In this document: positions 4,902 to 21,634 of the stretch, one piece after another
Position numbering within the stretch: position 1 is the first letter of the stretch
Layout of the letters: every line of letters begins with the position of its first letter
Assembly (NCBI GenBank): GCA_963765845.1
Contig: CAVXYJ010000003.1
Location: 44,888-68,887 of the forward strand
From: an uncultured Actinomycetota bacterium
GTDB lineage: Bacteria > Actinomycetota > Actinomycetes > Frankiales > Frankiaceae
Length of the DNA: 24,000 bases
Direction of reading: 5' to 3'
Position numbers and translations under genes: made by a program
The notes under the pieces: generated by a model
What the model was told of the DNA's origin: nothing
What the model saw: only the letters and a program-made list of their open reading frames with translations
Databases searched by the model: none

Positions 4902-6593
4902 CTAGCGATTCCCCCGAGGGTGGTCCACGGATTCGGCGGCAATGACGACCCGGTTGCGGCCGGAGGCTTTCGCGGCCAGCAGCGCCTCGTCGGCCGCGGC
5001 GACGACACCGTCGAACGAGTCGGCATCGGCGGATGACGCGAGGCCGAAGCTGATGGTGAAGGGCGCGACCCGGCCGGCGGTCAGGGCCAGTGCGAGGTTC
5101 TCGCGTACGCGTTCGAGCACGATCGTCGCCGCATCCATATCGCTGCTCGGCAAGACGAGGACGAACTCCTCGCCGCCGTAGCGGGCGGCGATGTCATCGG
5201 GCCGGATGGACTCACGCAGCACGCGGGAGAACAGCCGCAGCGCTTGATCACCGGCCTCGTGTCCGTGGGTGTCGTTCAGGAGCTTGAACTGATCGAGATC
5301 GCCGTACGCCAGCGCGTAAGGGACTGCCTCCCGTTGCAGGTCACGCACCCGATTCTCCAGGCTGCGCCGGTTGGACAGGCCGGTGAGCGGGTCGCTGCGC
5401 GCCTGGGTCTCGGATTCTTCGAATGCGCGCAGCATCGCGACGCGCTCTGCCGCGCGCCGGGAGGTGACTTCCAGGTACTCGACCTCGGACTGCGTCGGCG
5501 CCACATTGTCGGGTCCCACGGCATGCGTGACGCCCACAGCCTTCCCGCCAAAGCTGATCGGAACGCAGGCAGCCGAGCACGGGCCGGACGGACGGTCCTG
5601 CAGATAGGGGCAGGCGCTAAGCGCGCTGCTCGTCGGGAAGATGAGCGTGCGGCCGCGGGTGGCGGCCGGGCAATCACCCGGCGCCGCGACCCCGCAGCGG
5701 TTCGGTTCTTCGAGGCCGGCATTTCCGACGCTGACCGTCCGCTGGAAGTGAGCTTGGCTGGAGTCGGCGACGAGGACTTCCAGCTGCGGCCGGGCGAGCG
5801 ATTGGCGCAGCGCCTTGTCCACGACGCGATAGACATCGGGTTCGCTTTTCGCCATGTCCAGGGCCTCTTGCAGGGCTGTCGCGTAGGCCTGGCGTCGAGC
5901 ACTCTCGCGTTCGGCGCGCTCCCGGCGGTGTGCGCGCTGGCCGAAAGCGAAAGCCATCGCCAGGGTGACGAGAGCGGCGAGAGCCACCGTGGTCAGCAGT
6001 GTGGTCCGGGCTGTGCCGAGGTCGCTGACGCTCTGACTCAGGTCGGGGTTGACGGCCCCTCCCAGCTGCGTGGCGGCAGTCGCGGTAACGGCCCACATCC
6101 GGTCAAATGCCGAGCGCTCAGCCGCGATCGGAGCGGCGACCTGAGCTGGCGGGAGACCCGCAATGAGTGGAGCCAAGGCTGTATATGCCTTGGTGAACGC
6201 CGCGTTCGCCGCGATGAGGTCGCGAGCAAGGCCAGGAAGCTGCGCGGCCGGAAGGGCCTTCACGAGGTCTTGCGTCTGAACGGTCAGTGTCTGGATGAGC
6301 TGGGCCGCTGCGGCCACCTTGAGACCGGTCGCCGAGGTCGGCTTCACCGCTTCAAAACCGGGCTCGATGAGTATCTGGAACTCCGACAGCGACGTGCGCA
6401 GGTCGGCGACCTGCTGCTCGACCAGCGCATCCCGCTGCGCCAGCTGCAGCCTGCTCTCGCCCGACCAGAGCGGACGCAGATTCAGCAAACCCGCAGCGGA
6501 TATCGCGACGAGAACGGCGGCGGCGAACGCCCAGATGGAGCGCCGCACATGAGACGTCGCGGTGGTTGCCTGTCGCACGCGCTCTCCCCTCAT
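4902..6593 (-). CDS. Membrane-anchored diguanylate cyclase (GGDEF domain) with an extracytoplasmic helical region and a Cys-rich GAF-like cytoplasmic sensor.
   Basis: The C-terminus reads [12 protein letters not shown]...[24 protein letters not shown]...[18 protein letters not shown]. The active-site GGEEF lies at 5163-5177, and an RxxD I-site (RPDD) sits at the canonical spacing upstream. There are two predicted TM helices (about residues 20-37 and 198-218). Five Cys fall in residues 300-343. Confidence 0.92.
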
Positions 6594-7338: not shown

Positions 7339-8067
7339 TCACGTCCCTAGATAAGCGGCGGACAACTGCGTTTCGATGGCGGACGGGGAACCGATCTCCG
7401 TCACGCGCCCTTGCAGCATGATGGCGGCGACATCGGCGATCGTCAGCACCACGCGCGCGAACTGCTCGACGAGCAGGACGGAGATGCCCTCTTCAACAAG
7501 CTGCGCCACGACGTCGTACAGCGACTTGACGACCAGGGGCGCGAGCCCCATGGACAGCTCGTCGATGAGCAGGATCGCCGGCGACGTTCCGAGTGCCCGT
7601 GCCAGCGCGAGCATCTGCTGCTCACCGCCCGAGAGCGTGCCCGCCAATTGTTTGCGTCGCTCACCTAATCGTGGAAAGCGCGCGTAAGCCGCGTCCTCGA
7701 GCGAGTGCAGGGAAAAGCCGAGCCTGGTGGCAAGCCAGAGGTTCTCGCGCACCGTGAGGTTGGGAAAGATGCCGCGGCCTTCCGGGACGGTGCAGACGCC
7801 GAGCCGGGCAAGGTCCTCGGCGGATGCTCCGGTGACGTCACGCCCGGCCAGCCGCAATTCGCCGCGGGTCGGAGTCATGAGGCCCGAGCAGACCTTCAGC
7901 GTCGTCGATTTCCCGCCGCCGTTGGGGCCGAGGAGCGCCATGGTCGAGCCGGCGGGCACCGCGAAGTTGACACCGTGCAAGACCTCGATCGGCCCGTAGG
8001 CAGCGTGCACTCCGACTAGTTCCAGCAGCGGTGGCGGCTGCTCTGCCGAGTCCGGTGAGACGCTCAC
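7339..8067 (-). CDS. ABC transporter ATP-binding protein, LivF-like (HAAT family).
   Basis: Walker A GPNGGGKST, signature LSGGEQQML, Walker B ILLIDELS. I place the start at the GTG (complement of cac 8065-8067), which overlaps the upstream gene's TGA as GTGA. The track's longer N-terminus (from 8184) lies inside the upstream gene and is Arg-rich junk. Confidence 0.92.
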   Translation of the reverse strand: MSVSPDSAEQPPPLLELVGVHAAYGPIEVLHGVNFAVPAGSTMALLGPNGGGKSTTLKVCSGLMTPTRGELRLAGRDVTGASAEDLARLGVCTVPEGRGIFPNLTVRENLWLATRLGFSLHSLEDAAYARFPRLGERRKQLAGTLSGGEQQMLALARALGTSPAILLIDELSMGLAPLVVKSLYDVVAQLVEEGISVLLVEQFARVVLTIADVAAIMLQGRVTEIGSPSAIETQLSAAYLGT

Positions 8068-8804
8068 GCGGCACCCTCTGCGGCACCGAGGTAGGCGTCG
8101 ATCACCGCTTGGTCGTTGCGTATGTGCTCTGGCGTGCCGACCGAAATGATGCGGCCGTAGTCCAGGACGTGGATGGTCGAGCACACCTGCATCACGAGCG
8201 ACATGTCGTGCTCGACAAGGCAGATCGCAAGGTCGTCGGTCGCGGCGAGCCGGCGCAGCAGCTCGCCGAATTCCTCAGTCTCGCTCTCGGTCTGCCCTGA
8301 CGCCGGCTCATCGAGCAGCACGACCTGGGGCCGGGTCATCAGCGATCGGGCGAGTTCCACCCGGCGCGCCGTGCCGGTAGCCAGCTCCGTGATGTCGCGA
8401 TGGGCGACGGAGGTCAGCCCGACGATCTCGATGACCTCATCCGCGCGGGCGTTGACGTCGACGCGGTCACTGAACTTTGCGGCGTTGCGAATCTGCCCTG
8501 CCACCCGGACGTTGTCGCGCACGTCAAGCGAGGTGAAGAGCTCGAGGCGCTGGAAGGTGCGCGAAAGTCCTTTGCGGGCACGTTTGAACGGCGGTAGCCG
8601 GGTGATGTCTTCGCCGGCCAGCAGCACCCTGCCGCCCTGCGGCCGCAGGAGCCCGGTGATGACATTGAAAAGTGTGGTCTTTCCTGCGCCGTTCGGCCCG
8701 ATGAGCCCGGTCACGGTGCCTTTCTCGACGGCCACCGATACGTCACGAAGTGCGATGTTGCCACCGAACTGGACGGTGACGCCCGCGGACTCCAGAAGCG
8801 GCAC
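8064..8804 (-). CDS. ABC transporter ATP-binding protein, LivG-like (HAAT family).
   Basis: Walker A GPNGAGKTT, a LivG-type C-terminal motif (VIDAYLG), and Walker B VVLLDEPASG. The start is a GTG (complement of cac 8802-8804), 1 nt after the permease stop and preceded by GGGAG. The track's N-terminal extension to 8927 overlaps the permease. Confidence 0.92.
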   Translation of the reverse strand: MPLLESAGVTVQFGGNIALRDVSVAVEKGTVTGLIGPNGAGKTTLFNVITGLLRPQGGRVLLAGEDITRLPPFKRARKGLSRTFQRLELFTSLDVRDNVRVAGQIRNAAKFSDRVDVNARADEVIEIVGLTSVAHRDITELATGTARRVELARSLMTRPQVVLLDEPASGQTESETEEFGELLRRLAATDDLAICLVEHDMSLVMQVCSTIHVLDYGRIISVGTPEHIRNDQAVIDAYLGAAEGAA

Positions 8805-8805
8805 G

Positions 8806-11109
8806 TCAGTCTCCCGCCACGGCTGTGACCGCGGTGGTGGCTGAGGTGAGAGCCGGCATGGCGACGGTGGTCGCCGACGCCTTGCCGGTGGGCGCCGGGA
8901 TACCGAGATGATCGTCGAGTTCGGCAAGCATTTCCGGGGTCATGGGCAGATCGATGCCGACAAGTTCCAGCGGAACATCGAGCGCAGACTTGCGTTCCGG
9001 CGCTTCTGCCTTGAAGGCCTTCGGCATGAGCATGCGCGCGATCGCCGGCCACAGCAGGAACAGCAGCAACGTGGCGACGACGAACCACCAGTTGCTGATG
9101 CTGTTGGTGTCGGCGAGGACGTAGACGACAATTTCGAGCCCGACGCCGAGCGCAATCATCGGCTTGACCTTCGCGAGCGGCTTGAAGCCGTTCATGATGT
9201 CGCTGACGAAACCGCTGGGATTCTTGCCGAGTCCGATGCCGACGATGGCGGGCAGAACAGTGGTGAACGTGGCCAGCCAAACGAACATGCCGTTCAAGCT
9301 GCCGTGGTCGGCACCGATCTTGCCGAAGCTGTTCTGGATGGACACATAGGCGACGCCGACGAGAAGGCCACCGGCGAAAGCTCCGCTGACGTAACCAATG
9401 CCGGCGATCACAACCGACATCACGATCCCCAGGCTGCTGAAGATGGTGAAGCTGTTGATGTCGACGGTGACCAGCGCGGCCGACAGCAGCGCGCCGCCGA
9501 GCCCGGCAATACCGGCTGACAGCATGAATACACCGAGCTTGAGCCGGATCGGGTTCTGACCCAGCGTGGCTGACGCCGCTGGGCTGTCCTTCATGGCGAT
9601 GAGCCGCTGGCCGAAGCCGCTACGCCGAAGCAACACGATGAGCACGCCGAGCACGGCGAACAGCACCGTCAGGAACATGAGGAACGTTCCCGGCTTACGG
9701 GCGTCGAGCGGGCCGATCTTCGGCGCCGGAACGTTCAGCGAGCCGTTCGTGAAGATGGTGAACTTCTGCCCGAACCAGCTGTGCTGGCTGCTGTCTTCCA
9801 AGAGCATGTGCGAGACGAACACGCCGAACGCCATGGTGGCCAGCGCGAGATACAGCCCGCGCAATCGCAGGGCCGGCAGGGCCGCCAGCCCGCCCGCGAG
9901 GGCACAGACCAGGAAGGCGGCGACCAGTCCCCAGACGGTCATATAGCTGTTGACGCTCGACCCGGCGACGCCGAGGTGGAAGGCGATGATGGCGCCGATG
10001 GCCCCAAAAGCCAACGGTGCCAGGTTCAATTCACCGGCGTACCCGGTAAGCGGAACGAGCGAGAGAGCAATGAGGGCAAAGCCCAGCCCGACGTTCATGT
10101 CGTTCAGGGCGGTCGCTGCCATGAGCCGGCGGAGCAGGAACATGCCGACGATGAGAATGACCGCCCACAGCAACGCTTGCCGGACTGAGGGCACGGCAAA
10201 CCGCTCGCGCGCGCGGACCAGGCTCGTCCCGCGCAGGCGATCCGATGGGAGTAGCAGCAGCGCGATGAACAGCAGGATCATCGACAGCGACTCACGGAAA
10301 TGCGATATCACCGGAGTATTGCCGAGGTAACCCACCACGTAGTTGTCGGCCAGCCCGATGATGATGGCGCCGGCAAACGTCCTGGGGACGCTGCGCAGGC
10401 GCCCGAAGACCGCTGCCGCGAACGCATCGATGACCAGCAGCGTCAGCTGGTTCGGGTCGAGGGAGCCCCCGAGGATCGGCGTGATGAGGATCCCGGCGAG
10501 CGCAGCCAGGAACGCACCGAGCGCCCACGAGAAGGTCGCCAGCCGCAGCGGCTTGCCGCCGTTGAGCCGCAGTAGGTCCGGATCATCGACGACGCCTCGC
10601 ATCGCTACGCCGATGTAGCTGTGCGTGAAGAGGAATCGCAATCCGAGCGCGATCACCAGGGCGCAGCCGAGCGCGATGAACTCGTGGTAGGTCACCCGGC
10701 TGCCGAAGATGGAGACCGAACTGTCGCTGCCGAAGAAATAGTCCAGCCGGCGCGGGGTCAGCGGGTTCCAGATCCAGTTGGCCAGTGGCACCGCGCCGAT
10801 CGTCAACGCGATCGTCACCGTGATCTTGGTGATCTCGGAGGTGTTGCGCAGCCCGCGCATGATGGCGATGTCGAGCACCGCGCCCAGCAGGGGGGCGAAG
10901 ACGAAGAGCACGACGAACAGTGCCAGGGGGGCTGACCAGTGCCAGCCCACCCGGAACTGCCAGTAGATGTACGCCGACAGCATCGCGATCGCTCCATGAG
11001 CGAAGTTGAAGATGCCGGAGGTGGTGTAGGTGAGCACCAAGCCAGAGGCGGCGATGCCGTAGACGCCTCCGAGGATGAGCCCAAGGAGGGTGTACTGCAG
11101 GAAGAGCAT
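8806..11109 (-). CDS. Fused LivH-LivM type branched-chain/hydrophobic amino-acid ABC permease (767 aa) with an extra C-terminal membrane-plus-tail extension.
   Basis: The N-terminal third is LivH-like (MLFLQYTLLGLILGGVYGIAASGLVLTYTTSGIFNFAHGA). The middle is LivM-like (LIALSLVPLTGYAGELNLAPLAFGAIGA...MKDSPAASATLGQNPIRLKL). The ATG is the complement of cat 11107-11109, with GAGG upstream. It is a single uninterrupted ORF. Confidence 0.9.
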   Translation of the reverse strand: MLFLQYTLLGLILGGVYGIAASGLVLTYTTSGIFNFAHGAIAMLSAYIYWQFRVGWHWSAPLALFVVLFVFAPLLGAVLDIAIMRGLRNTSEITKITVTIALTIGAVPLANWIWNPLTPRRLDYFFGSDSSVSIFGSRVTYHEFIALGCALVIALGLRFLFTHSYIGVAMRGVVDDPDLLRLNGGKPLRLATFSWALGAFLAALAGILITPILGGSLDPNQLTLLVIDAFAAAVFGRLRSVPRTFAGAIIIGLADNYVVGYLGNTPVISHFRESLSMILLFIALLLLPSDRLRGTSLVRARERFAVPSVRQALLWAVILIVGMFLLRRLMAATALNDMNVGLGFALIALSLVPLTGYAGELNLAPLAFGAIGAIIAFHLGVAGSSVNSYMTVWGLVAAFLVCALAGGLAALPALRLRGLYLALATMAFGVFVSHMLLEDSSQHSWFGQKFTIFTNGSLNVPAPKIGPLDARKPGTFLMFLTVLFAVLGVLIVLLRRSGFGQRLIAMKDSPAASATLGQNPIRLKLGVFMLSAGIAGLGGALLSAALVTVDINSFTIFSSLGIVMSVVIAGIGYVSGAFAGGLLVGVAYVSIQNSFGKIGADHGSLNGMFVWLATFTTVLPAIVGIGLGKNPSGFVSDIMNGFKPLAKVKPMIALGVGLEIVVYVLADTNSISNWWFVVATLLLFLLWPAIARMLMPKAFKAEAPERKSALDVPLELVGIDLPMTPEMLAELDDHLGIPAPTGKASATTVAMPALTSATTAVTAVAGD

Positions 11110-11131
11110 CAGACCGCCTCTGGCGCCGGTG

Positions 11132-12550
11132 TCAGGACTGCGGCTTGATCACGCTCGATGTGAGGAAGGTCGTCGCGATGCGATCGGAGTTCAGCTTTAC
11201 TCCCCACAGCGACTGCGGCACCGCCGCCACGTACTCGGGGTTGCAGTCGAACGTGCCCGGCTTCGTCGGGTATTCCCGCGAGAACGTGGTGCCGGTCAGC
11301 TTGATGAGCATGCCACAGGACGGAGGCTTGTTGTTGCCCGGGTCGGTGGGGGCGTGCATCCCTCCACCGGTCCACTTGTGCACCGCGGAGAGCTTGTTCA
11401 CCATGCACTGGCGGGTAAGCGTGGAGCCGCAGGCCTTCGCCTCCGTCGCCCACAGCAGGAACGAGGAGACGGCCTGCTCCCCGAGCTGGCTGTAGGCGCC
11501 ACCGTCAGCCTTGACGATGTCGATGTACTGCTTGACCGCCGGCACGACGTTGGCTTCCTCAAGCGGGATGAACGCCGAGCGGATGTGCGCGTTGTTGGCG
11601 TAGCCGTTGGTGTTGGCGGCCGAGAACTGGGTGCTGTAGAGGTTCGTCTCCATGAGGATGACCGGGTTGTAGTTCAGCTGGTGCATGGCGGTCAGGAAGT
11701 TGCTGATCACAGGCCCGGGGCTGACGTTCACCATCAACAGCTTGACGCCGCAATTCTTGAGCTTCTGCACGAACGGCTTGTAGTCCGACTCGCCCAGGTA
11801 GTTGATGGTCACGTCGCAATTCGCCGACACAAAGCCGGCCTTCTTCATGGCGTCCGCGTCCTTCACCAGCGAGGTGTGCGCTGCCTGCAGCGTCGAGTCC
11901 ATGAGGGCGAACTTCTTCACCGCGTCTGGATAGAGCTTCGCCATCTGGTAGTACGACGAGGCCGGCTGGAAGTCGACCGGGTTCGGCACGCCCTGGTACT
12001 GCATCGGCCCGTTGGCAAACGCAGCCAGTACCGAGTAGCCCTCAGTAGTGACCATGTTGCACTTCACCCGGGTGGCTTCGGCCGCACCGTCAGCGGCGAA
12101 GCCCTCGCCGACCATCATGAAGTCTTTGGTGCACGCCGTCGTCATAACGTTGTTAGCCAGCGTGATCTTCGCATCGTAGAAGTCACCGATGATCTTGCGG
12201 CCGTTGATACCGCCCTGATCGTTGCACCACTTGATGAACGCCTTGACCGAGTCGCCCATCTCCTTGTTCAGACCGGGTGACTGGGCGAAGCCGCGGTCAT
12301 CGCCGTAGCCGATCTCGATGGTCGAATTGGTGACTCCCCGGTCGGTCGCCCCTGTGGCGCTGCCGGTGCCGCAAGGCGATGCGAGCGTGCCGAAAGTCTT
12401 GCCCGCGGCCGATGATGAGCTGGAGGATCCAGCACTCGGCGCGGTCGACGACTGGGGGGTCGAGCCCCGTCCACTGCTCCCGCAAGCAGCGAGTGCCATC
12501 ACCGCCGCGGTAGCCAAACCGACCAAACCAACTGCACGGCCGTTTCGCAC
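11132..12550 (-). CDS. ABC transporter substrate-binding lipoprotein (type I periplasmic binding fold, Leu/Ile/Val-binding family-like).
   Basis: I place the start at the GTG (complement of cac 12548-12550), which is preceded by GGAGGGG. This gives VRNGRAVGLVGLATAAVMALAAC, a signal peptide with a lipobox Cys, followed by a Ser-rich linker. The body (IEIGYGDDRGF...INGRKI...NVMTTACTKDFMMVGEG) is typical of Liv-type binding proteins. It is the first gene of the operon, 22 nt upstream of the permease. Confidence 0.88.
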   Translation of the reverse strand: MRNGRAVGLVGLATAAVMALAACGSSGRGSTPQSSTAPSAGSSSSSSAAGKTFGTLASPCGTGSATGATDRGVTNSTIEIGYGDDRGFAQSPGLNKEMGDSVKAFIKWCNDQGGINGRKIIGDFYDAKITLANNVMTTACTKDFMMVGEGFAADGAAEATRVKCNMVTTEGYSVLAAFANGPMQYQGVPNPVDFQPASSYYQMAKLYPDAVKKFALMDSTLQAAHTSLVKDADAMKKAGFVSANCDVTINYLGESDYKPFVQKLKNCGVKLLMVNVSPGPVISNFLTAMHQLNYNPVILMETNLYSTQFSAANTNGYANNAHIRSAFIPLEEANVVPAVKQYIDIVKADGGAYSQLGEQAVSSFLLWATEAKACGSTLTRQCMVNKLSAVHKWTGGGMHAPTDPGNNKPPSCGMLIKLTGTTFSREYPTKPGTFDCNPEYVAAVPQSLWGVKLNSDRIATTFLTSSVIKPQS

Positions 12551-12643
12551 AGCCCCTCCAGGTGTGTCCCGAGTCACATGACGCGGCGAACAGTACCGCA
12601 CTCGCCTCACCGAAGGGGAGAACTCGTGAAACAACGTTCCCGA

Positions 12644-12656
12644 GTCGTTATACGAC
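12644..12656. promoter_or_regulatory. Palindrome GTCGT-TAT-ACGAC in the divergent heliorhodopsin / ABC-operon intergenic region. It is a candidate operator.
   Basis: Read directly from the sequence. It sits in the lowest-GC part of the 321-bp intergenic region. I can map no promoter from sequence alone. Confidence 0.2.
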
Positions 12657-12871
12657 CAAGTCGCTGGCACGCAAGGGCCGCGGATCAGGTCCTTTTCGTG
12701 GTGCAAGCGAACACGTTTGCGGGACGAGCAATAACATCGGTGTCACATCACGATGATCCGTTCGGCCCCCTGCTGGACAGCTTCCAACCCTGCTGCGGGT
12801 GGTCGTGTGATGCTGAAGCAGCGCCTCTCAGGGCCGGCGCGCGGCGTGCTGATGGCGCGGTTCGGAGGTGG

Positions 12872-13624
12872 ATGCTCGTGGCTGACTCCAGACTGGCCGG
12901 GCTGCGGCGGTGGAATCTCGGACTGGGCGTGCTGCACGCCGGACAAGCCGTCGCGATCCTCGTGCTCGCCAACGGGTTCGCGATCACCGTCACCGCGTCC
13001 TACCCGGCGGGCCCGCCCGGCACGACACCCTCCGCGCCGTCCGCGTTGTTCGATGTCGCGATCGGACCCGCGGTCGCGGTCTTCCTGTTACTGGCCGCGC
13101 TCGACCACCTGCTGACTGCGACCGCCGCCCGCTCGATCTACGAGGCGGATCTGCGCCGGGGCATCAACCGGTTCCGGTGGATCGAGTACTCGCTCAGCGC
13201 CTCGATCATGATCGTGCTGATCGGCTTCTACTTCGGCCTGACCGCCATCACCACCGTCGTGGCCATCATCGGAGCAAACGTGGCGATGATCCTGTTCGGC
13301 TGGCTGCAAGAACGCGCCAACCCACCGGACAGGACCGCGACGACGATGCTGCCGTTCTGGTTCGGCACCGTTGCCGGCGCCGCGCCTTGGATCGCCATCG
13401 TGATCAACCTCGTCGGCGCCGACCAGGTACCCGGCTTCGTCATCGGCATCTTCGTCTCGCTGCTGATCGCGTTCTTCACCTTCGCCGTGAACCAATGGCT
13501 GCAGTACCGCGAGATCGGTCCATGGCGCGAGTACGCCTTCGGCGAGAAGGCCTACCTCGTCCTCAGCCTGATCGCCAAGTCACTGCTGGCATGGCAGATC
13601 TTTGCCGGTTCCCTCGCCTCCTGA
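12872..13624 (+). CDS. Heliorhodopsin (7-TM retinal-binding photoreceptor protein with a predicted N-in topology).
   Basis: This is the 3' part of track ORF 12578..13624. The ATG at 12872 follows GGAGG (12864-12868); a GTG at 12878 is an alternative start. There are seven hydrophobic helices. Several blocks match the reference heliorhodopsin 48C12 as I remember it: LANGFAITVTASYPAGPPGTT, FRWIEYSLSASIMIVLI, NVAMILFGWLQE, LPFWFG and GEKAYLVLSLIAKSLLAWQIF. Key residues are the TM7 Lys K236 (aag 13577-13579), TM3 Glu E105 (gag 13184-13186), His22 (12935-12937) and His79 (13106-13108). Confidence 0.93.
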   Translation: MLVADSRLAGLRRWNLGLGVLHAGQAVAILVLANGFAITVTASYPAGPPGTTPSAPSALFDVAIGPAVAVFLLLAALDHLLTATAARSIYEADLRRGINRFRWIEYSLSASIMIVLIGFYFGLTAITTVVAIIGANVAMILFGWLQERANPPDRTATTMLPFWFGTVAGAAPWIAIVINLVGADQVPGFVIGIFVSLLIAFFTFAVNQWLQYREIGPWREYAFGEKAYLVLSLIAKSLLAWQIFAGSLAS

Positions 13625-13668: not shown

Positions 13669-13692
13669 TCCGGTGACAGACTCCGGTGACAG
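13669..13692. repeat. Perfect tandem direct repeat TCCGGTGACAG-ac-TCCGGTGACAG (11-nt unit, 13-nt period) between the heliorhodopsin stop and the GDPD-like gene.
   Basis: Read directly from the sequence: 13669-13679 and 13682-13692 are identical. It lies 45 nt after the heliorhodopsin stop and about 190 nt before the GDPD start. The confidence value is for the repeat existing. Any regulatory role is unproven. Confidence 0.6.
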
Positions 13693-13883
13693 CGGCCGTG
13701 AGCGCTCGTCCACGTCCGGAGGGCTGCCCGTCGAACCGCGGCAGGCGTAACGGATGTTGCCCTCTGCGCTACGGAGGCGATACGGCGCGAGGCGCTACTG
13801 TTTCGAACGCGCCATCCGCACTGATCACCTATGCGCGGGCCGGCGGTGCCGGTCCACCGAAGTCGAAGGCGAGGACGAGCGAC

Positions 13884-14954
13884 GTGAGGTCCTGGCCGGG
13901 GATGAACGGATCCGGCGTCCGCCGGCACACCGGAGCGGTAGCGATCGCCGGAGCGTTGGTGACGCTGCTGGCGAGTGCATGCGGTGCGAGCACGACGGGC
14001 CCGAGCGCGAGCAGCAGCCCTTCGCAGCCCGCCGCGTCCGCATCAGCGTCGGCGTCGGCGTCCGCAGCGCCGGCGGGCAAGGACCAGTGGTTCGGTCGTC
14101 ACGTCGTCGCCATCACGCACAACGGCGGTGAGTACGCGTTCCCGCAGGACACGTTGTTCGCCCTGCGCAGCGCGCAGGCGCTGCACATGCAGGTGCTCGA
14201 TGTGGACATCCAGATGAGCAAGGACAACGTGCCGGTGCTCATCCATTCCGAGACGCTGGCTTCGAGCACGAACGGCCACGGCAACGTCGCCGACTTCACC
14301 GCCAAGCAGCTTTCCGAGCTGGATGCGGCATACCAGTGGGTGCCGAACTGCGGAACCTGCGGTGGCAGGCCGGCATCGGACTACCCCTACCGCGGCGTCC
14401 GTACCGGCCAGCAGCCGCTACCGAAGGGCGCTACCAGCCGAGCGGAATTCGGTGTGCCGACGCTGGAAGAGGTCATGGCCGCATTTCCGCAGGCCTACCT
14501 CGACATCGAGCTGAAGCCGGAATCGGAATCGGCGACGGTCGTTGCGGCCCTCATACACAAGTTTCACCGAGAGGACCGCACGATCGTCGCGTCCTTTGAC
14601 GACAAGCAGATCGCCGCCTTCCAGAAGCTGGCTCCGACGGTGGCCACCTCGCCGGGGCAGACCGCGTCGACGAACTTCTTCCTCGGCAAACCGATGGTTC
14701 CCGGCTTCCAGGTACTCCAGGTGCCCTACCGATACGAGTTCGGCGGCAAGCTTGTGACCGTGGTGACGCCGAGCCTGGTCAGCAGGGCCCACGCCGCAGG
14801 CCTGGCGGTGTGGGTCTGGGATCAGGGAGAAACTCCGGGCAAGGCGCTGTACCGGACGCTGGTGGCGCTGGGCGTCGACGGGATCCTGGCCAGCAAGCCG
14901 TCGGATCTGCTGGCCGTGCTGCAAGCCGACCACAAGCAGTGGTCAGGCACGTAG
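13884..14954 (+). CDS. Secreted or lipoprotein glycerophosphodiester phosphodiesterase (GDPD)-family protein with divergent active-site motifs.
   Basis: Track ORF 13686..14954. I prefer the GTG at 13884 (GAGGA 8 nt upstream) or the ATG at 13902. This gives a signal peptide ...GAVAIAGALVTLLASAC followed by a Ser/Ala-rich linker. The GDPD-like core is AITHNGGEYAFPQDTLFALRSAQA...LDVDIQMSKDNVPVLIHSETL...GVPTLEEV...LDIELK...VWVWD. Confidence 0.8.
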   Translation: MRSWPGMNGSGVRRHTGAVAIAGALVTLLASACGASTTGPSASSSPSQPAASASASASASAAPAGKDQWFGRHVVAITHNGGEYAFPQDTLFALRSAQALHMQVLDVDIQMSKDNVPVLIHSETLASSTNGHGNVADFTAKQLSELDAAYQWVPNCGTCGGRPASDYPYRGVRTGQQPLPKGATSRAEFGVPTLEEVMAAFPQAYLDIELKPESESATVVAALIHKFHREDRTIVASFDDKQIAAFQKLAPTVATSPGQTASTNFFLGKPMVPGFQVLQVPYRYEFGGKLVTVVTPSLVSRAHAAGLAVWVWDQGETPGKALYRTLVALGVDGILASKPSDLLAVLQADHKQWSGT

Positions 14955-16812: not shown

Positions 16813-18033
16813 TCATGGGGCTGACGCGCTCAGGTCGTCGGGATCATCACGTTCGGCGGACTGCCAGGCAGGCTGGCGCGCCACCCGAACGAACGGGTTG
16901 GCGACTGCCGGCACTCTCAAAGCCGCCCACCGGCCACGCACGCGGGCGTATGGCGACCAGCCGCCACCTGCCTGCCGGAGCCGTACCGATGCGTACTCGC
17001 GGGCCCGGCTCGGCAGCGCCGCACCGGCGAACAGCACCGCGGCGCCCACCGCGATGTTGGCGACGAATGTGCCCGGGTCGACGGAGGTGCCGAGCACCTG
17101 GGGAATCAGCGCGATGGCCAAGGCCGGCGGATGCAGACCGCCCGCCAGCGCGAAGGTCACCAGCACGGCCGCTACCGCCAGCAGCCCGCTCCCCCAGGCG
17201 GTCGGCACATGCGCCATGGCCAGGGCGCCTTCAGCGGCGGCGAAGACAAGCACGGCCCAGTGCCGCAGCCCGGCCAACGCTGACGTGCCACTCGCTGTCT
17301 GCTCGATCGTCGCGACGATCATCGGCGGGGCGACCGCGGCTGCGGCCAGTCCCAGAACCGGCCATGCCACGAGAACCCAAAGCACGGCGACGGCCCAAAC
17401 CACGGTCATCACCGCCGCCGGCAGCCGACCTTCCGCCGCTTTGGCCTCGGCCGGGTACCCGTCGGCGCTGCGAGCGCGAGACCGTTCAAGCCCGCTGATC
17501 ACGGCCAACAGCCCGCACAGCCCCAGCACCGTCAGCGGGAACATCCAGCTCCGGACACCGAAAACGACCGGGAACACTCCCGCCGACACCGACGGCGCCA
17601 GCCGTGACGCCACCAGTTGCAGGCCCAGCACCGCAAGGGAGATCGCGAGGATGACGCCGACCGGGCGCGAGAGTCCAGCGTTGGCGATGATGACTCCCAC
17701 CGCGGCAAAGGTGGGCGGCACCAGCGCCAGCTTCAACGGGGACCGGCTCCAGCCGGGAAGGCGCAGCGCCAGCACGCCAAAAGAGATGGCCGCTGCCTCC
17801 GGAAAGATGAGGTTCGCGTCGTGGGTAGCCGTCGACAGCACCAGCATCGGCGCGACGGCGACGTAGACCAGCGGCCAGCGCCGCCGGCCGGCGATCGCCC
17901 GGCGGAACCCCGCACCCACCTGCCCCTGCCGGCTCACCGCCCGGCGCCCCTTCGAATCCACACCAGCCAGCATCTCCGGCCCGGACCGATCCCTCAATCG
18001 CCAATCCGACAACCAGCCCAAGAACGCCGTCAT
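16813..18033 (-). CDS. Polytopic integral membrane protein, HPP-family-like. The functional assignment is tentative.
   Basis: Track ORF 16813..18159, but codons above about 18086 overlap rnpB, so I use the ATG at 18033 (the ATG at 17973 is an alternative). It has many hydrophobic helices. An HPP motif context (AGGLHPPALAIALIP) lies in the second half, and a related segment (THDANLIFPEAAAISFG) in the first half. GC3 bias is strong throughout. Confidence 0.6.
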   Translation of the reverse strand: MTAFLGWLSDWRLRDRSGPEMLAGVDSKGRRAVSRQGQVGAGFRRAIAGRRRWPLVYVAVAPMLVLSTATHDANLIFPEAAAISFGVLALRLPGWSRSPLKLALVPPTFAAVGVIIANAGLSRPVGVILAISLAVLGLQLVASRLAPSVSAGVFPVVFGVRSWMFPLTVLGLCGLLAVISGLERSRARSADGYPAEAKAAEGRLPAAVMTVVWAVAVLWVLVAWPVLGLAAAAVAPPMIVATIEQTASGTSALAGLRHWAVLVFAAAEGALAMAHVPTAWGSGLLAVAAVLVTFALAGGLHPPALAIALIPQVLGTSVDPGTFVANIAVGAAVLFAGAALPSRAREYASVRLRQAGGGWSPYARVRGRWAALRVPAVANPFVRVARQPAWQSAERDDPDDLSASAP

Positions 18034-18085
18034 CAAGCGAGCCGCCCGGAACTGCTCGCTGGAAGCCACAGGCAACACAAGCGGG

Positions 18086-18527
18086 GCGACGGACGAGTCG
18101 GCCTGTACGCCGGGTTCTGTGCCCGGCCGCCCGAGGTCGGCGCGGCGACGGTCATCCATCTCGGCCTGCCGTTGCCGACAGCCTCTAGCGGTCTACCCGC
18201 AGGCTCGGACGGGCCGTCCTCGAACGCCTGCGCAGGCACCGCGGCGAGCCCGGGCCCCTCTTGACCTTGCTCCGGGTGGGGTTTACCGAGCCGCCCGGGT
18301 CACCCCGGACGCTGGTGGTCTCTTACACCACCGTTTCACCCTTACCGCGCGGCCGGGCAAGCAGCCGCCGGCGGTCTGCTTTCTGTGGCACTGTCCCGCG
18401 GGTCACCCCGGGTGGGCGTTACCCACCACCCTGCCCTGTGGAGCCCGGACGTTCCTCGGCGCGCCCTCAAGCCCGCCGAAACGGGACAAAAGGAACGCAA
18501 CGCGACCGTCCGGCCGGCTCGTCCGCC
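18086..18527 (-). ncRNA. rnpB: RNase P RNA, bacterial type A.
   Basis: The reverse strand carries the universal RNase P blocks in the correct order:
- GAGGAACGUCCGGGCUCCACAGGGCAGGGUGGUGGGUAACGCCCACC
- ACAGAAAGCAGACC
- GGUAAGGGUGAAACGGUGGUGUAAGAGACCACCAG
- GGUAAACCCCACCCGGAGCAAGGUCAAGAGG
- AGAUGGAUGACCGUCGCC
- CACAGAACCCGGCGUACAGGCCGA
The 5' CGGACGAGCCGGCC (18512-18525) pairs with the 3' GGCCGACUCGUCCG (18090-18103) to form P1. The ends are uncertain by about 5 nt. Confidence 0.95.
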
Positions 18528-18562
18528 GACGCTCACCGTACGACGGGTCGTACGCTGCCGCC

Positions 18563-18934
18563 ATGACGTCGCCTGAGCAACCGCCGTTCGACCCGAACGC
18601 GACGACCCAACAGCCGCTGCCCCCTCCGACCCGGGCGGCACCGGCATCCCCGGTGCAGCCGGCGCAGCCGGTGAAACGCGGGCCCGGCTGGGGCGCTTAC
18701 CTGATCACCGTGCTCGCGCTGGTCATCCTGGCTGCGGTCATCGTCTTCGTGCTGCAGAACAACGAGCCGTTGACGGTCAAGTTCCTCAACATCAAGCACC
18801 ACTACCGAAAGAGCTCCATCGCCCTCGGCGCCGCGGCCATTGCAGGATTTCTCGTCGGCCTCTTCCTCGGATTGATTCCGTGGCTGTCGACCCGCCGAAA
18901 GTTGCGCGCGCTGCGCCGCGGCAGCCAGCTCTAG
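18563..18934 (+). CDS. LapA-domain (DUF1049-like) small membrane protein with a Pro-rich N-terminus.
   Basis: This is the 3' part of track ORF 18119..18934, whose upstream part overlaps rnpB on the opposite strand. From the ATG at 18563 it reads MTSPEQPPFDPNATTQQPLPPP...GWGAYLITVLALVILAAVIVFVLQNNEPLTVKFLN...ALGAAAIAGFLVGLFLGLIPWLSTRRKLRALRR. That is the 2-TM architecture typical of LapA-domain proteins. Confidence 0.75.
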   Translation: MTSPEQPPFDPNATTQQPLPPPTRAAPASPVQPAQPVKRGPGWGAYLITVLALVILAAVIVFVLQNNEPLTVKFLNIKHHYRKSSIALGAAAIAGFLVGLFLGLIPWLSTRRKLRALRRGSQL

Positions 18935-20357: not shown

Positions 20358-21634
20358 ATGGTCGAAGACGGGTTCGGGGTGAAAGCAGCGCAGTTGCATG
20401 CGCTGGCCGCCGAACTCGCCGCCGCTGATCTCAGCGGATACGTCCGGGGTGCTGGCCGTCGAGGTGCTGCCGGAAGTGCTGGGCGCGGGCCGTCAGCTGG
20501 ATCTGCTGTCCTGCCGGCGATCGAACGCGCCGACCGGTCCGGTGCCTACGCCATGGACGGGGCGGCGTCGACGAAGGCGTTCGTGCGTGGCTCTCGGGTG
20601 AGTCTGATGGGTGGGTGTCCAAAAGGGTGCAGGCCGGGCGGGCGCTGGCCGACCGGATGCCGGTCACCGCCAAAGCGTTCGAGGCCGGTGACCTCGGCCT
20701 GGATCATGCTTGGGTGATCGTGCAGGCGACGAAGGAGCTGCAGCACGATCTCGCCGCCGACCTGGAGGCGTTCCTCGCCCAGCAGGCGGCGCCTTTGACG
20801 CCACGGCAGCTGCGGGTCGTCGCCGAAGAACTCCTCGCCGCCGCCGCCCCCGAGCAGTCCGCGGACCAGGCGGCCCGCAAACACGCCGCCCAGCATGTCC
20901 ACCTGTCCGAAACCCTCGACGGCCGGTGGCGGCTGGATGGCTGGCTGGACGCCGAAGCCGGCCTGATCGTCTCCAAAGCCATCGCCGAGTTCCTGCGCAA
21001 ACCCGACCCCGACGGTGATCTGCTCACCGAATCCATCGGCAGTCGCCGCGCCGAAGCCCTGGTGCAAATGGCCCGCCACGCCACCGCCCACGCCGAAACC
21101 TGCCACGGCGAAGGCGGCGGAAGGCACACCGTCATCGTCGGCCTGTCCCATCAGGCCCTGCTCGACGGCCTCGGTACCGCCGGCACCCCCGAAGGCCAGC
21201 GCCTGCCCGCAGCGGCTGCCCGCCGGATGGCGTGCGACAGCGGGATCATCCCCGCCGTGTTCGGCTCCGACTCCGAAACGTTCGACTTCGGCCGCCGTAC
21301 CCGCACCATCAGCGCCGGGCTACGCCACTTCCTTATCGCCCGCGACGGCGGATGCGTCTGGCCCGGCTGTGACCGGCCACCCTCCTACACCGAAGCCCAC
21401 CACCGCCAGTACTGGATAGACCGCGGCGAAACCAACCCCGGCAACCTCGAACTGCTCTGCCTGGCGCACCATCACAAAGTGCATGAAGGCGGCTGGAACA
21501 TGACCATCGGCCACGACCCCGACCACACCCCCTGGTTCTGGCCACCCGACGGACGACCACCCCTCCAAGGCCACCGCCGACCACTCCTGCAACCCCTACT
21601 CCGAACACCCGGACACACCCCCAGGAGGACATAA
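20358..21634 (+). pseudogene. DUF222 + HNH endonuclease protein (REP13E12-like family). The N-terminal region is disrupted by three frame changes.
   Basis: The C-terminal 339 aa (track ORF 20615..21634) carries a DUF222 body and an HNH motif (EAHHRQYWIDRGETNPGNLELLCLAHHHKVHEGGW). The family-typical N-terminus is spread over three frames:
- frame 0: MVEDGFGVKAAQLHALAAELAAADLSG
- frame 1: VLAVEVLPEVLGAGRQLDLLS
- frame 0: LPAIERADRSGAYAMDGAASTKAFVR
- frame 2: WLSGESDGWVSKRVQAGRALADRMP
High GC3 follows these switches. They fall at about 20446-20449 (a GGGG run), 20510-20511 (CC) and 20586-20588. Confidence 0.8.

Follow-up and report, generated by a model that had tools for sequence, protein, structure and literature searches.

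A stand-alone and probably functional heliorhodopsin gene of the 48C12 group in an uncultured actinomycete

We found that a 24,000-nucleotide stretch of contig CAVXYJ010000003.1 from an uncultured Actinomycetota bacterium (the window) carries a gene whose product is, to near certainty, a heliorhodopsin (HeR), and that this protein belongs to the well-populated group of actinobacterial HeRs that includes 48C12 (subfamily 1, or group A) and thus to a family already described. Our preferred reading, to which we give a probability of roughly 0.75, is that the gene encodes a functional actinobacterial HeR and stands alone, with transcription starting from a promoter of its own, and we hold with the same degree of confidence that the protein is a non-pumping photosensor. 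On whether it might act by regulating a partner protein, as has been proposed by analogy with some members of the family, we would put even odds. The gene is considered to stand alone because the upstream gene is divergent, a gap of about 280 nucleotides (nt) separates it from the gene downstream, and no neighbor family is shared by more than 9 of 75 HeR loci.

The family assignment is carried by profile matches far above their curated cutoffs. PF18761 was matched along its full length (profile positions 1 to 242 of 242, residues 11 to 248 of the protein) with 329.3 bits against a cutoff of 26.7 bits, and the E value of 1.7e-98 lies far outside chance, while the NCBIfam equivalog NF038020 ("heliorhodopsin HeR") was covered from position 1 to 244 of 244 with 277.3 bits against a cutoff of 100 bits. 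A HMMER comparison with PDB placed the 48C12 structures 6su3, 6uh3, and 9ljj first (E about 8e-66; residues 8 to 248 aligned to 9 to 253), with further matches to the archaeal TaHeR (6is6; E = 8e-54) and the eukaryotic Cv06 (9vfc). Four sequence blocks that a preliminary description of this DNA had matched to 48C12 are all present in the alignment to these three 48C12 structures, and the translation and hydropathy of the 250-residue product agree with its count of seven hydrophobic helices. The same description had set the protein apart from type-1 rhodopsins, such as bacteriorhodopsin and proteorhodopsin (PF01036), and in fact PF01036 gave no match at E ≤ 0.01, the only matches reported being PF18761 and a sub-threshold DER1. 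Seven helices and a helix-7 retinal lysine are common to both families, but the window protein has a single glutamate counterion in place of the helix-3 motif triads and is predicted to have the opposite topology.

A single scan of GTDB contigs, with one genome per species, listed at least 337 HeR relatives, and the best 80 of these were aligned with the window protein and 48C12. H22, H79, E105, and K236 are each invariant in all 82 aligned sequences. K236 and E105 had been proposed to occupy the Schiff-base and counterion columns and the two histidines to form the conserved pair, and the alignment to 48C12 bears out these placements, with the codons at the positions given in Table 1. We took 27 positions of 48C12 to be functionally important, following the structure papers and their numbering, and the window protein agrees with 48C12 at 25 of them, including H22, H79, E105, S232, K236, R102, E147, Y221, and E225. 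At the two others (S76 of 48C12 replaced by A75, and S112 by A110) it carries the residue usual for its clade, Ala at window position 75 being found in 81 of the 82 sequences, and in the alignment as a whole no more than two of its internal residues depart from the 90% consensus.

The protein 48C12 (PDB 6su3, 6su4, and 6uh3) comes from an actinobacterial fosmid from Lake Kinneret. It and the window protein are identical at 119 of 239 aligned residues (49.8%), fall in the same length class, and have the same positive-inside pattern, and the Schiff-base lysine, the counterion glutamate, both histidines, S237, R104, E149, Y226, and E230 of 48C12 are kept in the window protein, as are its fenestration residues F162, G169, F206, and A210. 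They differ in that S76, S112, and N207 of 48C12 are Ala, Ala, and Phe in the window protein and in that loop 5-6 of the latter is five residues shorter.

For the topology, the seven hydrophobic segments of the window protein were set by hydropathy, and the Lys and Arg residues were then counted in each tail and loop. The N-tail and loop 2-3 hold three each and loops 4-5 and 6-7 two each, for a total of 10, whereas loops 1-2, 3-4, and 5-6 and the C-tail hold none, so the charge clusters lie exactly where the preliminary description had located them. By the positive-inside rule, this split of 10 to 0 predicts, as that description did, an N-in/C-out orientation, which is the one established for the family.

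The reading frame of the gene is open back to an ATG at 12578, which would give a protein of 348 amino acids, but G+C content at third codon positions (GC3) is 0.58 in this in-frame extension compared with 0.888 within the HeR gene, and the extension differs from the corresponding DNA of the nearest relative (locus L001, described below) by non-triplet indels (1 and 5 bases). We conclude from the low GC3 and these indels that positions 12578 to 12871 are not coding, and the longer open reading frame (ORF) is rejected on these two grounds and because of the conserved GGAGG before 12872; the string GGAGGTGGATG at this ribosome-binding site shows no difference between the window and L001. The ratio of nonsynonymous to synonymous substitution (dN/dS, by the method of Nei and Gojobori) is 0.11 to 0.19 against five orthologues and 0.15 against the nearest of them, and the gene is under purifying selection. 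Scans around the gene for sigma-70-like promoters, terminators, and inverted repeats gave nothing above shuffle expectation, the single terminator-like match falling within the HeR coding sequence, and an Rfam search of the window found neither a riboswitch nor another regulatory RNA close to the HeR gene, its sole match being the RNase P RNA elsewhere. On the other side of the intergenic region, the ORF of the divergent substrate-binding protein has a GC3 of 0.67 in its first 55 codons compared with 0.87 in the remainder, and its lipoprotein signal peptide begins near residue 53.

Genes of this kind are common, with hundreds of actinobacteria from soil and freshwater carrying one. The nearest relative among the matches listed, with 96% identity, is encoded by L001 (the L-numbers denote genomic HeR loci) in the uncultured Actinomycetota metagenome-assembled genome (MAG) MFD02416.bin.2.193 (CAVQDA01), and it is followed, again among the matches listed, by HeRs of a Jatrophihabitans MAG (88%), of Nakamurella and Williamsia (79%), and of Nocardioides, Geodermatophilaceae, Ilumatobacteraceae, and others (67 to 77%), so that, besides the 96% relative, there are hundreds of public HeRs at 67 to 88% identity. 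Exact-sequence look-ups in the contig index and the protein clusters found no identical protein entry. L001 and the window show synteny across 20.7 kb, with neighboring proteins 83 to 98% identical, and the window genome is therefore a close relative of this MAG. The best 80 relatives are labeled Actinomycetota with one exception, a HeR of 71% identity on the 3.8-kb contig CAMDCC010000293.1 (L028) of a freshwater MAG labeled Bifidobacterium breve, a label that almost certainly reflects misbinning or a mistake in taxonomy.

The N-terminal tails of these proteins vary. At 12872 to 12905, in comparison with 9960 to 10040 of L001, the window gene is without 14 codons (42 nt) of the cytoplasmic N-tail that L001 has (MLMADSGFAGQHDAGDVGDRRLAGL versus MLVADSRLAGL), and near-identical ...GCCGGGC... 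strings lie on both sides of the indel, which suggests a deletion by slippage. In other relatives the N-tail is likewise longer, by 15 to 25 residues, and includes a conserved G-V-(D/T) motif that the window protein does not have. In Williamsia herbipolensis ARP1 (L007) and Williamsia sp. Leaf354 (L010), the HeR gene (10001 to 10744; 78 to 79% identical) is followed after 45 nt by a gene for an ABC-2 membrane protein in the same orientation. Members of Williamsia contain mycolic acids and have an outer mycomembrane, and the presence of a HeR there fits awkwardly with the claim that only monoderm cells have HeRs.

On the model of characterized relatives, the protein would hold all-trans retinal in a protonated Schiff base with K236, stabilized by E105, absorb green-yellow light (about 550 to 560 nm), and respond by isomerization of the retinal. 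The Schiff-base proton would then pass to an internal acceptor group that includes H22 and H79 instead of being released, leading to a long-lived signaling state with zero net ion movement. In the most speculative step, the positively charged cytoplasmic loops might convey this state to a partner protein; such a partner would be encoded elsewhere in the genome and is not nameable from the window, and retinal would have to be supplied by genes outside the window or by the environment. The earlier account of the family as slow-cycling proteins that do not pump, and whose role is debated and possibly involves partner regulation, is in agreement with the literature.

The closest measured relative that we found is BagHR of Blastococcus aggregatus, a 559-nm pigment for which pumping was seen in neither NaCl nor CaCl2 and which, together with its close relatives, has a variable, non-operonic neighborhood (bioRxiv 10.1101/2024.05.16.594530). 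The genomic copy of BagHR (L048) shows 71% identity to the window protein and has in common with it the replacement of Ser76 by Ala, the canonical histidine pair, and an unpatterned neighborhood. BagHR nevertheless comes from another actinomycete family (Geodermatophilaceae), 29% of the residues differ, and the 559-nm absorption and the lack of pumping are properties of BagHR itself.

Regulation of a partner through charged loops is the best-documented output of bacterial HeRs and the mechanism that we favor for the window protein. OcHeR stimulates the ABC exporter OmrDE, with the regulation acting through charged cytoplasmic loops (PMC11109279), and the same article cites the regulation of glutamine synthetase and of photolyase by HeRs. 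The window protein belongs to the same family as these regulators and has positively charged cytoplasmic loops, and an ABC transporter happens to adjoin its gene. In the known systems, in contrast, the partner gene lies in the same operon, which is not so here, and the adjacent ABC transporter is a divergent importer whose linkage to the HeR gene is not conserved. A family scan of the window found no glutamine synthetase, photolyase, DegV, or drug exporter or exporter-type ABC transporter. Co-transcription with a partner was not found, the upstream gene being on the opposite strand and the glycerophosphodiester phosphodiesterase (GDPD) gene lying about 280 nt away, nor was conserved linkage to a partner found among related HeR loci, and for both reasons we place the window gene outside the operonic HeR-partner systems.

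Several points weigh against a partner-regulating photosensor. The regulatory step is drawn by analogy, as no partner is indicated and the model systems are operonic, unlike the window gene; no crt or blh gene occurs among the ORFs of the window that look coding, as had already been remarked; HeRs have been argued to be mainly carotenoid-antenna proteins in a 2025 preprint (bioRxiv 10.1101/2025.11.27.691015); and some viral HeRs are reported as proton transporters (PMC12873467).

The antenna proposal would make the protein mainly a two-chromophore light harvester, in which a xanthophyll taken up from outside sits at a lateral fenestration next to the ring of the retinal. The preprint defines the fenestration motif, in 48C12 numbering, as Gly at 169 together with aromatic residues at 162 and 206 and small ones at 166 and 210 (bioRxiv 10.1101/2025.11.27.691015), and the window protein has it (F162, T166, G169, F201, and A205). 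The same text calls N207 of 48C12 conserved and important for carotenoid positioning, with the carotenoid lying along it, but the equivalent residue in the window protein is F202 (codons of F201 and F202 at 13472 to 13477), and in our alignment this column holds Phe in 42, Met in 21, and Ser in 13 sequences (together 76 of 82), with Asn in only 3 of 82. The preprint also cites a type-1 sodium pump that bound carotenoids only after replacement of the equivalent residue by Gly, and the evidence for HeR antennas in the sections consulted consists of structural comparison and docking and not of measured binding (bioRxiv 10.1101/2025.11.27.691015). As an antenna role would moreover leave the use of the absorbed energy unexplained, we consider it improbable as the main function of the window protein.

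A different possibility is that the HeR modulates by light the divergent ABC importer of LIV type, the branched-chain amino acid family, much as OcHeR stimulates OmrDE. The importer operon is complete and is separated from the HeR gene by one shared intergenic stretch of about 320 bp, the 96% relative keeps the arrangement, and ABC transporters are among the ten frequent classes of HeR neighbors, with one HeR-ABC pair shown biochemically (PMC11109279). In a synteny test (tblastn of 19 window proteins against the 80 HeR loci), however, the LIV permease and the substrate-binding protein adjoin the HeR gene in L001 only, and the linkage is absent even from the 88%, 85%, and 82% relatives. An ABC ATPase of any kind lies within four genes of the HeR gene in 7 of 75 loci, compared with a chance expectation that we roughly estimate at about 14. 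The HeR gene and the operon are divergent and not co-transcribed, and OmrDE is a heterodimeric drug exporter and not a binding-protein-dependent importer. It thus seems very unlikely that the HeR was recruited, in the window organism and in MFD02416.bin.2.193, to couple light to the LIV importer, be it by binding or by shared intergenic regulation; if it were so, HeR-ABC coupling would include, beyond a drug exporter, a nutrient importer as well.

The wider context points to no partner, since no neighbor is conserved across the 75 loci whose genes within four of the HeR gene were clustered de novo. No neighbor family occurs in more than 9 of these loci, the largest being a generic SDR family and other top families being ABC ATPases and, as assigned by eye, quinone oxidoreductase-like and MFS-like proteins. 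A tightly packed neighbor on the same strand is present upstream in 7 and downstream in 11 of the 75 loci, counts that rest on rough gene calls. By Pfam, the flanking genes differ in each of the five nearest distinct relatives: Pup ligase and ArsR in the first, a Gln-amidase-domain protein and a radical SAM enzyme in the second, a disulfide oxidoreductase and PF03601 in the third, CsoR and DUF5995 in the fourth, and an unknown protein and an ABC-2 permease in the fifth.

The GDPD gene, whose likely start at the signal peptide is near 13902 (about 280 nt past the HeR stop codon), is found beside a HeR gene in only two of the 80 loci, L001 and L056, on the opposite strand in the latter. L056 belongs to an unrelated Acidimicrobiales MAG in which the GDPD homologue (10796 to 11611, minus strand; 37% identity) lies directly beside the HeR gene, and one such independent recurrence in about 70 loci is, by a rough estimate, not significant. 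We tried and rejected a functional link of the HeR to the LIV operon or to the GDPD by synteny, given that the arrangement occurs only in L001, plus the one GDPD in L056.

That the window protein would transport ions, as a proton channel or pump, is likewise highly doubtful. The precedent is found in some viral HeRs, among them the giant-virus V2HeR3, for which proton transport is reported (PMC12873467). The window protein, however, belongs to the 48C12 group and not to the viral subfamily, its arrangement of H22, H79, and E105 is that of the non-transporting 48C12, and BagHR, at 71% identity, does not transport. The viral subfamily, according to bioRxiv 10.1101/2025.11.27.691015, is without the fenestration motif, which the window protein has. 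Finally, frameshifted or fragmented HeR genes in three Geodermatophilaceae strains (bioRxiv 10.1101/2024.05.16.594530) and the 14 N-terminal codons by which the window gene falls short of its 96% relative could be taken as signs of a decaying or non-functional remnant, a reading that we find scarcely tenable given that the frame is intact with all key residues kept, that dN/dS against the nearest relative is low, GC3 is of the coding type, and the ribosome-binding site is preserved, and that the missing segment lies in a variable cytoplasmic tail of which the remaining part is about as long as that of 48C12.

Our results describe a typical HeR, and nothing sets the window copy apart from hundreds of public orthologues. 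The preliminary description was right in what it observed and in how it read the gene, and each refuting check it proposed that sequence allows turned out in its favor. It had also held the gene in high regard, an appraisal that we do not share, as this is a routine orthologue that is named by an equivalog profile, has a public relative at 96% identity, and lies in a context that is not conserved. Its significance hardly extends beyond correct annotation: this copy, with no conserved partner, fused domain, or unusual active-site residue, provides no new handle on HeR function. It adds data points nonetheless: soil-type actinomycetes (relatives of Jatrophihabitans and Nakamurella) carry a stand-alone HeR under purifying selection, and their clade has Ala at position 76 of 48C12 and a residue other than Asn at position 207, the last of which bears on the generality of the claim that HeRs bind carotenoids.

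Table 1. Positions of the heliorhodopsin gene, its key codons, and other features in the 24,000-nt window
Feature	Positions	Strand	Remarks
Heliorhodopsin coding sequence	12872-13624	+	250 amino acids plus stop; TGA at 13622-13624
Shine-Dalgarno sequence GGAGG	12863-12867	+	4 nt before ATG at 12872; read from the sequence
H22 codon, CAC	12935-12937	+	First conserved histidine; aligns with 48C12 H23
H79 codon, CAC	13106-13108	+	Second conserved histidine; aligns with 48C12 H80
E105 codon, GAG	13184-13186	+	Sole counterion glutamate, helix 3; aligns with 48C12 E107
K236 codon, AAG	13577-13579	+	Retinal Schiff-base lysine, helix 7; aligns with 48C12 K241
Divergent intergenic region	12548-12871		Between substrate-binding protein gene (minus strand) and HeR gene; HeR promoter presumed inside
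LIV-type ABC importer operon, complete	7339-12706	-	Upstream of HeR gene, divergent
Substrate-binding protein, Peripla_BP_6 lipoprotein	11132-12706	-	Ser-rich linker after lipobox
Fused permease, 767 amino acids	8806-11109	-	Two BPD_transp_2 matches; both halves in one protein
ABC ATPases, two	8064-8927 and 7339-8184	-	Part of LIV operon
Membrane-anchored GAF-GGDEF diguanylate cyclase	4902-6593	-	Downstream of ABC operon, with a 122-amino-acid ORF between
GDPD lipoprotein	13686-14954	+	Downstream of HeR gene; Ala/Ser repeat after lipobox
Bacterial RNase P RNA, class A (RF00010)	18090-18521	-	257 bits, full length
DUF222 plus HNH endonuclease ORF	20429-21634	+	Not found in syntenic L001

Beyond the gene for the GAF-GGDEF protein lies an IlvD gene, and because the two ORFs as called share about 125 nt, the true start of IlvD probably lies further downstream. 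On the other side, further downstream of the HeR gene, are genes for HxlR, cupin, and MDMPI proteins, an ArsB/CitMHS-type permease, a CysG-like protein, and an acyl-CoA dehydrogenase. Two ORFs overlap the RNase P RNA, one at 16813 to 18159 on the minus strand, which has no Pfam match, and one at 17867 to 18934 on the plus strand, which has only a below-cutoff LapA match in its C-terminal part, beyond the RNA; on account of the overlap and the poor Pfam support, both are judged to be partly or wholly spurious. Genes of the DUF222-HNH type are often mobile in actinobacteria, and the DUF222-HNH ORF of the window may be a genome-specific insertion.

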